Source of the DNA: Eledone cirrhosa
Lineage: Eukaryota
Direction: 5' to 3'
Length of the DNA stretch: 64,000 nt
Assembly: GCA_964016885.1 (NCBI GenBank)
Contig: OZ024744.1
Location: 115,134,001-115,198,000 of the forward strand
Part shown: one piece after another, positions 7,172 through 61,113 of the stretch
Position numbering within the stretch: position 1 is the first letter of the stretch
How the letters are laid out: each line of letters begins with the position of its first letter
The notes under the pieces: model-generated
What the model saw: only the letters and a program-made list of their open reading frames with translations
Database searches by the model: none
Told to the model about the DNA's origin: nothing
Position numbers and translations under genes: made by a program

Positions 7172-7676
7172 GTTGTGCTATGGTACAATGAAAGCAATAG
7201 TTACAGAGCAGTAAGTATGTGGGACTGCAGTGGTGGAGAGTGGTGTGGTCTTACTGTTGTGCTATGGTACAATGAAAGCAATAGTTACAGAGCAGTAAGT
7301 ATGTGGGACTGCAGAGGTGGAGAGTGGTGTGGTCTTACTGTTATGCTATGGTACAATGAAAGCAATAGTTACAGAGCAGTAAGTATGTGGGACTGCAGTG
7401 GTGGAGAGTGGTGTGGTCTTACTGTTGTGCTATGGTACAATGAAAGCAATAGTTACAGAGCAGTAAGTATGTGGGACTGCAGTGGTGGAGAGTGGTGTGG
7501 TCTTACTGTTGTGCTATGGTACAATGAAAGCAATAGTTACAGAGCAGTAAGTATGTGGGACTGCAGTGGTGGAGAGTGGTGTGGTCTTACTGTTGTGCTA
7601 TGGTACAATGAAAGCAATAGTTACAGAGCAGTAAGTATGTGGGACTGCAGAGGTGGAGAGTGGTGTGGTCTTACTC
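7172..7676. repeat. 84-bp minisatellite, 6 near-identical copies, inside the Helitron
   Basis: Unit gttgtgctatggtacaatgaaagc...gtggtcttact; 28-aa periodicity in ORF 7175-7723. Confidence 0.97.
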
Positions 7677-7919
7677 CTTTCAATGTTTCATTGTATGTTC
7701 ACCAATTGATGCAGAAGTCCTAATGAAAAGTGAAGTCGCCTTCGGTGAATAGGCAAATCATTTTCCATTACGATTTTTCAAAAGCATGTAATTGCGTTCC
7801 CCCTCTTTTTTGTTGTTTTTGCTGCTGTTTATATTTTGTTATTGTGTATGCAAAAATATCTGTACACAAATATATAATTATATATATATATATATATATA
7901 TATTAAAACAACAGATTAA

Positions 7920-7970
7920 AGTTTAAGTGAAGAATCGCTGCTTTCACCCTTAACGGGGTCTTCTGAAACT
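7920..7970 (-). ncRNA. Type I hammerhead-like motif with CAGAAGA core
   Basis: Minus strand: agttt CAGAAGA cccc-gttaa-gggt GAA AG...CT T aaact. Stem I agttt/aaact is perfect. Lies between (TA)n runs at ~7880 and ~8030. Confidence 0.5.
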
Positions 7971-8513
7971 AAAAAAAATTAATCTGTGAACGCAGAAGTA
8001 AATATTTCGAAAAACGTTACACACTATATATATATATATATATATATATATACACACACACACAGATAGCGTCATAATGTCGTAATCCAGACAGATATTA
8101 TAAGGGCGCGACGTTACCAGGGCCTAATGAGGTCCCTAGAGCATTGAAAATTTGAAATTTTTTTTGCTCACATGACTAGAAATATTACATGTGTAAAGTT
8201 TGAAAAAAATCGGTTGGGTGGTTCTCAAGTTTTAGGGAGTCAGACAGACAGACAGACAGACAAACATTCTCTGTTTTAGATATATAGATTATATATATAT
8301 ATATATATACAGAGAGAGAGAGGGTAACAATATATCGTTAAAGGTAATCCGATAAGAGTTTGTGAAAACTACTTATGATGGATAGTTTAAGCGTACGGTG
8401 CTGTGTGACTCAACAAGAGGTTTACGTGGGTGACGAGTAAATGACTTCATTTGTCAGACTGCAAATAAATCTCCTTGTTTATAATGTTGACCATGTTATT
8501 CTTCACTTTTTAT

Positions 8514-8672
8514 ATCATCATCATCATCATGATCATCATTTTACGTCCACTTTTTCCTGCTTGCAAGGGTGGGACAGGAACTGTTTCTGGCTGGATTTCT
8601 ACAGCTGGATGCCCTTCCTAACACCAACCTCATTTACAGTGAGTGCTGGGTGCTTTTTTTTCTGTGGCACCT
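8514..8672 (-). mobile_element. RTE-type 3' tail fragment
   Basis: (CAT)n then ...tacagctggatgcccttcctaacaccaacctcatttacagtgagtgctgggtgc, the reverse complement of the RTE 3' UTR at ~54779-54835 in this window. Confidence 0.8.
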
Positions 8673-8699
8673 CCACGACCACTTTGCATCATCTCATTT

Positions 8700-8835
8700 C
8701 TACAGCTGAGTAAACTGGAGCAATGTGAAATAAAGTGTCTTGCTCAAGGAAACAACACATCACCCATTCTGAGATTTGAACTCACAACCTTTCGATTGCA
8801 AGGCCAATGTTCTAACCACTAAGCCATGTGCCTCC
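8700..8835 (-). mobile_element. tRNA-derived SINE, 5' part
   Basis: Minus strand GGAGGCACATGGCTTAGTGGTTAG (A box) ... GTGAGTTCAAATCTC (B box) ... ccttgagcaagacactttatttcac. Homologous to 61835-61952. Confidence 0.85.
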
Positions 8836-8992
8836 ACACACACACACACACATATATATATATATATATATATATATATATATATATATATATATATATA
8901 TATATATATATATATATATATATATATATATATATATATATATATATATATATATATATAAACATATGAATACAGAGAGAGAGAGAGAGAGA
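8836..8992. repeat. Compound (CA)n(TA)n(GA)n microsatellite
   Basis: Direct reading. Confidence 0.97.
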
Positions 8993-9250
8993 GGGACCCC
9001 TTTTGGTCATGATTTGCAAACAGAGACAATGAACATTAAATTATGATGATGATAACCATGGATTTCCATCTGGGAAATTCCTCTCCAATGCATAAACCTC
9101 TCCGAGTTGTTTTGTGGGAGTCCATCATTTACCCATACCAGACTCATCTCTCCATGCACCATAAATACAATACAACGTTACACTTTTCTTTCATTTTAAA
9201 CTATAAAGTAAATGATATCCAGAACTTGTTTGAGATTAAATATATCTTAC

Positions 9251-59061: not shown

Positions 59062-59239
59062 CTGCAATAATAAAACAAAAAATAAAAATAAAATTAATTA
59101 TCACAAAAATATAAAAATATATAAAAATAGAAAATAATATTTATGTACTTGTGTTAATTTCATATATTTTCATGGAAGACAAAGAACAAATATCATACTC
59201 ATCCTTAAACACCAATAATAACAATCTCTTTATGATAAA

Positions 59240-59357
59240 TAAATGTCATAAACAGATATACAAATGTCATAAAAATGTTATCATATGGTGTACAAATGTC
59301 ATAAAAATGTTATCATATGGTATACAAATGTCATAAAAGTGTTATCATATGATATAT
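59240..59357. repeat. 32-bp tandem repeat, ~3 copies
   Basis: tacaaatgtcataaaaatgttatcatatggt repeated. Confidence 0.85.
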
Positions 59358-59529
59358 AACAGCAAAGAATGGAAACTATAATTGTCCCCAGAATACAACG
59401 GAGGAACGACGGCTTTAAACAAAAAATAAACTTATTGAATATATTAAATCAATAATATTGTTTTTTGTTTATTTTAGTTTTTACTGATCCAAGAAAAAAT
59501 GATTCCTAAAATACTTACTTTAAGAGGTG

Positions 59530-59758
59530 ATAATCTTAAGACCTGTCACACCTTAATATACAGTACCTTGTAATACAATATTAAGACCTGTCATAACTAG
59601 ATATACTGTTGTTTGTAATACAATCTTAAGACCTGTCATAACTAGATATACTGTTGTTTGTAATACAATATTAAGACCTGTCATAACTAGAAATACAGTA
59701 CCTTCTAATACAATATTAAGACCTATCATAACTAGATATACTGTTGTTTGTAATACAA
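59530..59758. repeat. 45-bp minisatellite, ~5 copies (unrelated to the large satellite)
   Basis: Unit taatacaatattaagacctgtcataactagatatactgttgtttg. Confidence 0.92.
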
Positions 59759-59898
59759 CCAACTACGTAATTTCCTGGTTATAGTATACATCACTATTTT
59801 CATAAAACTAGATAACATTGAATTTTCTAGTCTTAAAAAACCTCTATATAATTTTATAGTTTTGAACAATTACGAAATAAAATGAGATACAATTGCAG

Positions 59899-60758
59899 CT
59901 CACACCTATGTAGGTTTAGCTGGTCTCCTACAAGGCTGTATCACATAGGAGGTTTCTTGGGTGTTTTAATGATAGGGACCCCAGTCCTATCATGTTACAT
60001 CTCACACCGATGTAGGTTTAGCTGGTCTCCTACAAGGCTGTATCACATAGGAGGTTTCTTGGGTGTTTTAATGATAGGGACCCCAGTCCTATCATGTTAC
60101 ATCTCACACCTATGTAGGTTTAGCTGGTCTCCTACAAGGTTATATCTCATGGGAGGTTTCTTGGGTGTTTTAATGATAGGGACCCCACTCCTATCATGTT
60201 ACATCTCACACCTATGTAGGTTTAGTTTGTCTCCTACAAGGTTGTATCTCATAGGAGGTTTCTTGGGTGTTTTAATGATAGGGACCCCAGTCCTATCATG
60301 TTACATCTCACACCTATGTAGGTTTAGTTTGTCTCCTACAAGGTTGTATCTCATAGGAGGTTTCTTGGGTGTTTTAATGATAGGGACCCCAGTCCTATCA
60401 TGTTACATCTCACACCTATGTAAGTTTAGTTGGTCTCCTACAAGGTTGTATCTCATAGGAGGTTTCTTGGGTGTTTTAATGATAGGGACCCCAGTCCTAT
60501 CATGTTACATCTCACACCTATGTAGGTTTAGTTGCTCTCCTACAAGGTTGTATCTCATAGGAGGTTTCTTGGGTGATTTAATGATAGGGACCCCAGTCCT
60601 ATCATGTTACAGCTCACACCTATGTAGGTTTAGTTGATCTCCTACAAGGTTGTATCTCATAGGAGGTTTCTTGGGTGATTTAATGATAGGGACCCCAGTC
60701 CTATCATGTTACAACTCACACCTATGTAGGTTTAGTTGATCTCCTACAAGGTTGTATC
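59899..60758. repeat. 102-bp minisatellite, ~8.4 copies
   Basis: ctcacacc at 59899, 60001 and onward; 34-aa periodicity in ORF 59882-60637. Confidence 0.96.
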
Positions 60759-60791
60759 AATGACAACCTCCACCTCCTGCAATACGTCATA

Positions 60792-61113
60792 GACCATAGG
60801 TATGCGGGTGGGGGCAGTAAAGCCAGGTTTAGTCAGGATTCTGTTGACCATAGGTATGTGGGTGGGGGCAGTAAAGCCAGGTTTAGTCAGGATTCTGTTG
60901 ACCATAGGTATGTGGGTGGGGGCAGTAAAGCCAGGTTTAGTCAGGATTCTGTTGACCATAGGTATGTGGGTGGGGGCAGTAAAGCCAGATTTAGTCAGGA
61001 TTCTGTTGACCATAGGTATGTGGGTGGGGGCAGTAAAGCCAGGTTTAGTCAGGATTCTGTTGACCATAGGTATGTGGGTGGGGGCAGTAAAGCCAGGTTT
61101 AGTCAGGATTCTG
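60792..61113. repeat. 54-bp minisatellite, 6 copies
   Basis: Unit gaccataggtatgtgggtgggggcagtaaagccaggtttagtcaggattctgtt. Confidence 0.96.

Follow-up and report, generated by a model that had tools for sequence, protein, structure and literature searches.

The tandem arrays in this locus raise the question of where the repeated DNA in the introns of a conserved gene comes from, and whether each array grew in place from the transposon copy beside it or belongs to a family copied between sites. The window, the whole stretch of 64,000 bases of Eledone cirrhosa contig OZ024744.1 that was analysed, is housed in introns of the synergin-gamma gene of this octopod, the exons of which lie in order along the assembly:

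9251..9343, minus strand: synergin gamma exon
12070..12126, minus strand: synergin gamma exon
19320..19487, minus strand: synergin gamma exon
54987..55091, minus strand: synergin gamma exon, bounds within a few bases
57876..59064, minus strand: large synergin gamma exon, which a run X4 contig joins by splicing to the exon near 55090

Run X4 behaves as spliced, although no RNA data set was among the runs listed.

Tandem content of the window and host gene

Tandem arrays occupy 48,113 of the 64,000 bases (75%), compared to the ~70% of the original prediction, and the predicted arrays, periods and coordinates were confirmed. In the assembly, a single 30.6-kb array of 45-bp units represents 48% of the window. 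The proposal that tandem DNA is the main source of intron length was borne out across seven introns, in which 111,015 of 165,280 bases (67%) are tandem, about two thirds of intron length in a conserved gene. The tandem density of the window is not locally exceptional on this contig, since six of eight 10-kb samples evenly spaced along it were wholly tandem. At least three dispersed homologues were found for 15 of 33 arrays in 264 kb and for 1 of 330 shuffles, a rough figure because unmasked array edges account for some of the homologues and the arrays of 84 and 45 bp are undercounted. A tRNA scan found no tRNA, and no Rfam family, ribozymes included, reached its gathering score in the window; weak Rfam matches in 55800-62200 were set aside as microsatellite or palindrome artefacts outside the arrays.

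Three arrays stand apart from those with a transposon parent:

12129..13235, plus strand: 50 bp x 22 array, adjoining a splice acceptor of the host gene
59893..60758, plus strand: 102 bp x 8.5 array, family of at least 30 arrays, mostly on small contigs
60792..61113, plus strand: 54 bp x 6 array, private (1 of 1 candidate in the genome search)

The genome search returned no second locus and no parent element for the 50-bp array. No parent was found for the 54-bp unit, nor for the 102-bp unit except for a shared 26-bp hairpin. Apparent target-site duplications in the 102-bp family (7/31) were rejected, as they mostly look like degenerate unit pieces.

Array units and their parent elements

The prediction that arrays are slices of the elements around them held for all six named units (84, 95, 96, 48, 45 and 80 bp). 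Each unit is homologous to a dispersed element, the slice is single-copy elsewhere, and every array has its parent in register on one flank or both. Two of the arrays, those of 84 and 95 bp, are segments of variable copy number within young elements:

6922..8290, unstranded: young non-coding dispersed element holding the 84-bp array, end coordinate approximate
7171..7675, plus strand: 84 bp x 6 array, internal VNTR of the host element
18726..19201, minus strand: 95 bp x 5 array, repeated 3' half and tail of a young SINE
19202..19295, minus strand: 5' half of this SINE, 4 differences over 91 sites from the majority of 66 copies

The host of the 84-bp array, which we take to be Helitron-like from its anatomy, has flanks ~96% like the majority of 18 copies, in a search that scored 40 of 2393 first-look candidates. 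The parent element is in register on both sides, array boundaries are identical at 7 other loci with 2-10 units each, and the slice is single-unit in 10 of the 18 aligned copies. Three multi-unit copies share flank and unit variants (clade support 91/91) and two further multi-unit copies cluster at 83/88, neither being starred; judging from these groupings, transposition seems to have carried the multi-unit state along within two small clades. A four-base microsatellite run lies near one end of the host, and a search for subterminal inverted repeats among 8-12-mer pairs with at most one mismatch between the two ends of the window copy, which skipped AT-rich words, found none.

The 95-bp array is also in register on both sides, with the SINE head adjoining and the SINE tail at the array end. 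Its tail-to-internal join recurs at other SINE copies with periods of 95-113, the internal tail of these duplications mostly matching the copy's own tail, and the terminal unit runs on into the SINE in the window and at most multi-copy loci. The motif count for 95-bp copies overlooked the five-unit array of the window and split one six-unit array, and a SINE-head collection from two seeds returned nothing beyond the seeds.

Two arrays are slices of a LINE, presumably of the RTE type given its protein motifs:

10006..10177, minus strand: remnant of a LINE (3' coding part) whose register continues into the 96-bp array, with ~24-30 bp deleted at the join
10178..11307, plus strand: 96 bp x 11.9 array, slice of the LINE
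51152..51195, minus strand: degenerate 3' UTR of a LINE, matching at 79% (38 sites) and in register with the 48-bp array; its start is approximate
51196..51984, plus strand: 48 bp x 16.4 array, family present on 11 or more large contigs and also on several small contigs
52200..54960, plus strand: decayed LINE of the family parental to the 96- and 48-bp slices, bounds approximate

The 96-bp unit had been assigned to the RTE reverse transcriptase; it proved to be a LINE coding slice near the 3' end of the open reading frame, while the domain assignment was not sustained, Pfam finding no RT domain, and no family at all, in the LINE region bearing the slice. Positions 54200-54619 of the decayed LINE match the slice-bearing protein stretch at 58%, and the 3' end of this LINE matches the 48-bp parent majority at 88%. 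Compared to the parent, the left flank of the 96-bp array scored 112 (null 95th percentile 36, null maximum 124); a LINE continuation on its right was rejected, 47 of 340 null flanks scoring equally high. The 48-bp array is in register on its left side only (score 44, null maximum 25). Some LINE 3' UTR copies already contain a 47-48-bp dimer, and a 47-bp array 72 kb left of the window has LINE on both sides (scores 49 and 218).

Two further arrays are slices of SINEs:

20283..50931, plus strand: 45 bp x ~690 array (30.6 kb), SINE-head slice
50986..51051, plus strand: degenerate parent-SINE body on the downstream side of the 45-bp array, with 78% likeness (65 sites) to the parent majority
55973..56022, plus strand: decayed upstream part of the 80-bp parent SINE, with a 17-bp deletion
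56023..57819, plus strand: 80 bp x 22.5 array, SINE 3' slice, stopping 56 bp from a splice donor

The right flank of the 45-bp array scored 69 against the SINE body (null maximum 25), and the left flank of the 80-bp array 41 against the upstream SINE (null maximum 30), the 80-bp array stopping at the SINE 3' end. The 45- and 80-bp SINE parents gave only ~3 and 1-2 non-array matches, respectively, in 400 kb of unselected DNA.

In several cases, flanks had been described as more decayed than the array copies are from one another. Most arrays are indeed younger than the element around them, but the decay contrast is not general: the head beside the 95-bp array (4/91) is about as alike as the units, and for the 96-bp array the flank is 89% and the unit 81% like the parent majority. 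Homogenisation resets within-array identity, and such identity thus gives no age.

Recurrence and likeness across loci

The arrays had been considered private, yet all six named units recur at other loci; among the matches listed, small contigs, distal C28 and some large-contig ends are favoured. Matches to the 96-bp family were confined to the distal end region of this contig (113.6-118.9 Mb among the matches listed) and include a sister array of ~100 kb. The 80-bp family lies at 107-121 Mb of this contig and on C20 and C673, and the 45-bp array of the window contributes 250 of the 557 exact 25-mer matches in the genome.

Among loci chosen as best matches in one genome (37-40 candidates scored per search), a choice that raises between-locus identity, locus consensuses of the 45-, 48-, 80- and 96-bp families are 89-100% alike, compared to a mean likeness of only 67-83% between single-copy parents and the units. 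Locus consensuses differed from the family at 0-2 of 96 sites (7 arrays), 0-1 of 80 sites (10 arrays) and 0-3 of 48 sites (30 arrays, one row with a gap artefact), and the 45-bp consensuses from 11 loci on 6 contigs averaged 95% (minimum 89%). Single-copy parents matched the 48-bp unit at 71-92% (mean 83%, n=28), the 45-bp unit at a mean of 67% (best 82%, n=29) and the 80-bp unit at 59-81% (n=24). In-register flanks of the 45- and 80-bp families are ~66-89% alike vs ~95% for the units; the four such 45-bp flanks show 67-83% mutual likeness. Furthermore, 558 of 571 internal units of the 48-bp arrays carry one and the same substitution, which the parent majority lacks, and the family unit has a 1-bp insertion relative to that majority. 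Unlinked array consensuses are far more alike than their parents or in-register flanks, contrary to independent growth from a local copy.

Parent flanks persist at a minority of array ends. The SINE body is in register at 4 of 12 closed right ends of the 45-bp family; the window as sole source of this family, an idea held when 1 of 5 loci showed the body, was dropped once three more loci were found with it in register. The parent is in register at 5 of 10 left ends of the 80-bp family, plus one tie with the null maximum, and at 4 clear and 2 marginal of 28 left ends of the 48-bp family, in which 2 right ends begin with parent continuation. Of 7 closed left ends in the 96-bp family, the one in the window alone retains parent flank, which makes the window a possible source of that family. 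Most ends without parent flank have scattered phases and adjoin unrelated DNA (the 48-bp arrays, n=27, have 20 different starts and 20 different ends), and 7 of 8 80-bp arrays end at phases 33-48, mostly the SINE 3' end. With in-register flanks in the minority, the majority of landings would have had no homology to guide them, unless the flank was lost afterwards by deletion. Junction-adjacent repeats of at least 6 bp, sought as target-site duplications, occurred in 1 of 44 arrays, within the null rate, and neither an empty site nor a polymorphic insertion was observed. Joining the flanks rebuilt known sequence in 0 of 80 arrays, a weak test with a library of only 440 kb; two nominal matches were degenerate units.

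The predicted sequence independence was not supported, as the same slices seed several arrays. The 96-bp LINE slice also yields 47-, 73- and ~103-111-bp arrays, and the LINE 3' UTR slice a second 48-bp type. From the SINE tail come a 58-bp array and, in two organisms, loops of 33-75 bp. Direct repeats bounding the slices, read from alignments with no null, are 5 bp exact for the 96-bp unit, ~5/6 for the 80-bp unit, 3 bp for the 95-bp unit and only 1-3 bp for the 84-, 45- and 48-bp units; the expected junction microhomology is thus weak for three of the six.

Routes of amplification and comparable systems

The reading favoured here, at a probability of roughly 60%, is that transposon-slice families arise by slice duplication, expand through block exchange and are transferred from locus to locus by ectopic repair, in many cases onto old parent copies. 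A favoured slice would first be duplicated at short direct repeats and would then grow via unequal exchange or conversion of blocks. Within the 45-bp array, blocks of 1500, 948 and 909 bp recur exactly at distances of 2.3-5.0 kb, compared to 248-336 bp with units shuffled. Synthesis-dependent strand annealing or microhomology-mediated template switching may account for transfer: homology to a resident parent copy would guide one end, and the other would be joined where synthesis stopped. The 84- and 95-bp arrays would represent the first two stages, inside young elements, and the 45-, 48-, 80- and 96-bp arrays would be past the third. Given that the same repeats occur at many other places in the genome, comparison of their sequences suggests that these four of the six were likely copied between sites by DNA repair, not privately grown. 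More tentatively, and with the balance somewhat against it, dead LINE and SINE copies might serve as homologous landing pads in a relay that converts long-diverged parent copies on other chromosomes into arrays of tens of kb, and this relay, not transposition, might be what chiefly adds length to introns and chromosomes today in gene-bearing regions. Among the points against copying by repair are the weak microhomology at half of the founding joins and the identical appearance that old transposed array-bearing elements would have if later homogenised.

This last scenario, in which a tandem was born once in an active element and transposed, its flanks then decaying or being deleted while conversion kept the arrays alike, is unlikely but is the most durable alternative. 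It fits the 84-bp clades, although support in that tree is weak, as well as the dimer already present in LINE 3' UTR copies and the tendency of 80-bp arrays to stop at the SINE 3' end. The gap between flank and unit likeness in the 45- and 80-bp families means that inter-locus transfer would be needed anyway, and most 48- and 96-bp loci have no parent flank at all.

Extrachromosomal circles, looped out, amplified by rolling circle and reintegrated, have been proposed for Drosophila (PMC7403614) and Tribolium (bioRxiv 10.1101/2023.04.24.538079) satellites in the portions of those reports available, and rolling circle was also offered in the original prediction. Scattered end phases, unrelated flanks and different families side by side are consistent with this route, which nevertheless seems improbable here: the partial units at the two ends complement each other to one full unit in 6 of 44 arrays, against a chance expectation of 5.6, a signal that later end decay could mask, and the 45-bp array is pieced together from duplicated blocks and is not the run of one circle.

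Private, sequence-independent growth from the local transposon copy is very improbable as a general account, and for the 45-, 48- and 80-bp arrays the sequence comparisons have largely refuted it already. True in-place cases exist, i.e. the 47-bp array with LINE on both sides and the 95-bp own-tail duplications; the 50- and 54-bp arrays were found at no other locus, all six arrays have in-register flanks, and the 96-bp family may have begun in the window. Recurrence of the same slices, with none of the six private, and the derived changes shared by unlinked 48-bp arrays argue against it. Copying of array transcripts to new sites by LINE reverse transcriptase, with a fixed 3' end and a truncated 5' end, is equally improbable. 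Retained 48- and 96-bp flanks point toward the LINE 3' end and 80-bp arrays tend to stop at that of the SINE, whereas junction repeats are at the null rate, the window has no Rfam ribozyme, the 45-bp unit is a SINE head without the 3' recognition part, and loci do not share flanks. Assembly artefacts in array length or placement are very unlikely, given structured variants among units, gene exons in order and a 1499-bp contig of run X1 (possibly the assembly's own sample) that agrees at every base from the final 30 bases of the 80-bp array across the exon. The 80-bp loop was among the matches listed for X1 and not for X5, contigs being prone to drop variants; a contig from organism B departs from the alignment 9 bases into the intron, and no RAD reads from other individuals crossed array junctions.

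Processes of this kind are already known, parts having been described in reptiles, flies, beetles and oysters; a literature search found no description of such families for cephalopods. The closest likeness is to the SINE-derived satellites sSat1-3 of squamate reptiles (PMC10702118). According to the sections of that account available, units there are also shorter than the SINE and derive from its 5', central or 3' portion, one end bears a longer terminal unit continuing into the SINE, likeness is high within and between loci, and a few favoured slices dominate. A terminal unit of this type was found here at 4/12 (45 bp) and 5/10 (80 bp) loci, and for the 95-bp unit in the window and most multi-copy loci. 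The present case differs in its octopod host, in LINE and DNA-element slices that behave alike, in most loci having lost or never had parent flank, and in intron arrays of up to 30 kb; flank divergence, weighed here against unit divergence, was not so weighed in those sections.

As partially reported, Rsp-like satellites of Drosophila spread among loci of one chromosome with families side by side, one junction being tied to homology or microhomology and the other variable, and conversion and circles are candidate routes. Here, too, one homology-linked and one variable junction were found, with near-identical units at distant loci. Unlike that system, the docking sequence would be a dispersed parent transposon copy and not another satellite, and complementary truncated ends are not in excess. 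Cast of Tribolium castaneum similarly forms long arrays in genic regions that are exchanged between chromosomes and have irregular ends, which its authors, in the available part of the text, consider evidence against conversion (bioRxiv 10.1101/2023.04.24.538079); in contrast, a share of the ends here is in register with the parent element.

Human minisatellites derived from any part of a transposon include some lying between 5-10-bp direct repeats and most without a clear initiating repeat, as here, in the accessible portions of PMC3389668 and the review PMC9659126; those cases mostly have two units, while hundreds of units dominate intron length here. The Cg_HINE Helentron of the Pacific oyster contains central tandem repeats (PMC7492417, as excerpted). 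It resembles the 84-bp host in a variable central repeat within a non-coding dispersed element, with which the repeat seems to travel, and in a short four-base microsatellite near one end. It differs in its subterminal inverted repeats (11-12 bp), not found in the 84-bp host, most copies of which are single-unit.

The favoured reading would link two large repeat classes by a testable route, transposon remnants being both seed and docking site, and one genome displays every stage: single slice, young-element dimer, local array, multi-chromosome family and arrays of 30-100 kb. Repeat-induced CpA mutation, considered because units and parents differ, was not supported: array C>T changes per site were 0.149 at CpA, 0.124 at CpC and 0.153 at CpT. 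Dispersed copies showed ordinary CpG decay (C>T 0.132 vs ~0.02-0.03).

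Transposon parents of the arrays

All six of the named arrays in the window (units of 84, 96, 95, 45, 48 and 80 bp) are transposon slices with the parent element in register, and their anatomy is as the original prediction described it. Its claim that each array was private, grown in place from the copy around it, did not survive: all six recur at other loci, and multi-locus families had been taken for private growths. The 102-bp array, which the prediction did not name, likewise belongs to a multi-locus family, and genome searches returned no other locus and no parent element for the 50- and 54-bp arrays. 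Similarity searches scored 37-40 candidates each, so locus tallies are lower bounds biased toward close copies. Additional features of the window are:

5060-6413, minus strand: remnant of another, different LINE, carrying a Pfam RVT_1 (reverse transcriptase) domain
14122-15180, 16494-17195 and 61598-61803: long inverted repeats round AT microsatellites (386 bp at 97%, others shorter), resembling foldback or miniature inverted-repeat elements
59893-60758: 102-bp array, its unit holding a ~26-bp hairpin, also present in a young dispersed element, and a variable TGT run

The 96-bp unit is a coding piece of a LINE, presumably an RTE element, and a 5-bp direct repeat bounds the slice in the parent majority sequence. 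To its left, 160 bases match adjoining LINE sequence minus a short deletion; the match of the right flank to the LINE continuation was not significant. The 48-bp unit is a 3' UTR slice of the same LINE, with adjoining UTR only on the left side; this slice also gave rise to a second 48-bp array type, 81% like the first. The 96-bp region of the LINE was reused, also yielding 47-, 73- and ~103-111-bp arrays, and a 47-bp array 72 kb left of the window, with LINE flanks on both sides, is a clean in-place case. A 13-kb array of ~70-bp units (C28:115,105,097-115,118,196; window -28904 to -15805; C28 is the window's contig) shares with the 96-bp unit a 33-bp identical stretch, including changes absent from the LINE majority, and the two may come from a single parent copy or lineage.

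A SINE head makes up the 45-bp unit, and decayed SINE body follows the array; the 80-bp unit corresponds to the 3' end of a SINE, whose upstream part lies on the array's left. The 95-bp unit comprises the 3' half and tail of a young SINE, which carried two or three 3' halves at 18 of 124 motif-counted loci, all 18 query-picked and none from unselected DNA. In copies with a repeated internal site, the tail joins onto that site, and the inner tail is mostly like the same copy's own tail, a pattern that fits repeated duplication in place. Copies of this SINE, whole or truncated, are often chained tail to head with periods of ~179-197 (L006, L014, L019, L020 and L027). A SINE tail was likewise reused, giving a 58-bp array and, in contigs from two organisms, tail loops of 33-75 bp.

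The 84-bp unit corresponds to a single segment inside a young dispersed element, a putative Helitron. No Helentron-type subterminal inverted repeats were found in its window copy. The segment is single in 10 of 18 aligned copies and present as 2-10 units with identical boundaries in the rest. Three multi-unit copies, including that in the window, have flank variants and unit variants in common and were grouped at 91/91, and two more were grouped at 83/88; the tandem therefore probably travelled in part with the element.

Uniform arrays and diverged parents

Array consensuses differed from their family across loci at 0-2 of 96, 0-1 of 80 and 0-3 of 48 sites, and 45-bp consensuses averaged 95% identity over 11 loci, whereas single-copy parent sequence averaged 83% (48 bp, n=28), 72% (80 bp, n=24) and 67% (45 bp, n=29) identity to the unit. 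Under neutral theory, homogenisation inside one array leaves divergence between arrays unslowed, and separate growth from local copies would make arrays as different as those copies; sequence has therefore moved between loci, and private growth is improbable.

For the 45-bp family, 4 of 12 loci had the parent flank in register (67-83% mutual identity), as did 5 of 10 for 80 bp and 1 of 7 for 96 bp; among 28 left ends of the 48-bp family it was clearly in register at 4 and marginally at 2, and 2 right ends had it as well. The two SINE parents matched few non-array sites in 400 kb of unselected DNA. Remaining array ends showed scattered unit phases and unrelated DNA.

The 45-bp unit had 557 exact matches genome-wide, 250 within the window and others elsewhere on C28 and on C3, C11, C14, C17 and C21. 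The 80-bp arrays occur on C28 (107-121 Mb), C20 and C673, and the 48-bp arrays on C2, C6, C10, C13, C20, C22-C28 and small contigs. A 96-bp junction 24-mer had 425 exact matches, the 100 listed all being on C28 from 113.57 Mb, and this array fills nearly all of four 10-kb C28 samples (115.40-115.47 Mb). Within-locus growth proceeds in blocks: the 45-bp array contains exact 0.9-1.5 kb repeats at 2.3-5.0 kb lags (unit-shuffled maximum 336 bp). Two 48-bp arrays of 48 and 16 units (L212, C28:135.68 Mb; L213, C28:123.81 Mb) have both flanks in common and are a segmental duplicate whose array length altered later. At other loci, distinct families adjoin one another or are separated by at most a few hundred bases (48+96, 45+102, 96+80 and 102+48 bp; L207, L208, L209 and L161).

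Spread between loci and known systems

The preferred reading, given a probability of roughly 60%, is that a favoured transposon slice would be duplicated, the array would grow by unequal exchange, and break repair would then copy it to further loci, where homology to a parent copy already in place would often serve as the anchor. The break-repair route is what we infer for this copying; joining the flanks of 80 arrays recovered no empty, pre-insertion site. The main alternative, that array-bearing elements transposed long ago and were homogenised afterwards, is possible but clearly less probable, and it too needs inter-locus transfer. Weaker still, and not all mutually exclusive with the others, are spread through extrachromosomal circles, which is doubtful (complementary partial end units at 6 of 44 arrays against 5.6 expected, no excess), RNA-mediated copying (target-site duplications at 1 of 44 arrays), which like private growth is improbable, and assembly artefact, the least credible.

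The arrays are a real, well-developed instance of a known phenomenon. As outlined in PMC10702118, squamate SINE-derived satellites are extended in one terminal unit and homogeneous from locus to locus, a type that the 45-, 80- and 95-bp arrays fit in these respects. Published work also describes satellite spread in which one junction is linked by homology and the other varies (PMC7403614), transposon-born minisatellites in general (PMC3389668, PMC9659126), central repeats in oyster Helentron elements (PMC7492417) and euchromatic satellite spread in Tribolium (bioRxiv 10.1101/2023.04.24.538079). Literature searches found no cephalopod study of such array families. Two points are somewhat new: the measured difference of the arrays, young and uniform, from the old LINE and SINE parent copies holding them, and the share of intron length taken by arrays.

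Tandem DNA in the host gene and on its contig

The window spans C28:115,134,001-115,198,000. A 395-residue exon within it matched synergin gamma protein of Octopus vulgaris (82%), O. bimaculoides (81%) and Argonauta (73%), which identifies the animal as an octopod. The window holds five minus-strand exons of this gene, three more are found within 100 kb, and two of the exons are joined in one contig of sequencing run X4. Tandem repeats make up 75% of the window and 111,015 of 165,280 bases (67%, range 41-91%) in seven synergin gamma introns. High tandem cover is not peculiar to the window, because six of eight evenly spaced 10-kb C28 samples were tandem throughout; elsewhere in the 3.0 Gb genome the share was 5-41% in seven samples of C1 and C3 and 2-70% in five small-contig samples. 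In these samples tandem DNA is far denser on C28 than on C1 or C3. C28 is 136.5 Mb long, yet numbered behind contigs of 22-40 Mb, an ordering that hints that it may be a sex chromosome or special in some other way.

The 50-bp array starts two bases from a synergin gamma splice acceptor (window 12069-12135), its end unit thereby providing the pyrimidine tract, and the unit may be a duplicate of the intron's own end. CpG was absent from 13 of 14 sampled repeat units. Its observed/expected ratio was 0.016 for the 45-bp array and 0 for the 80-bp array, compared with ~0.34 for LINE remnants and 0.60 for the exon; the loss in arrays fits long methylation-driven decay.
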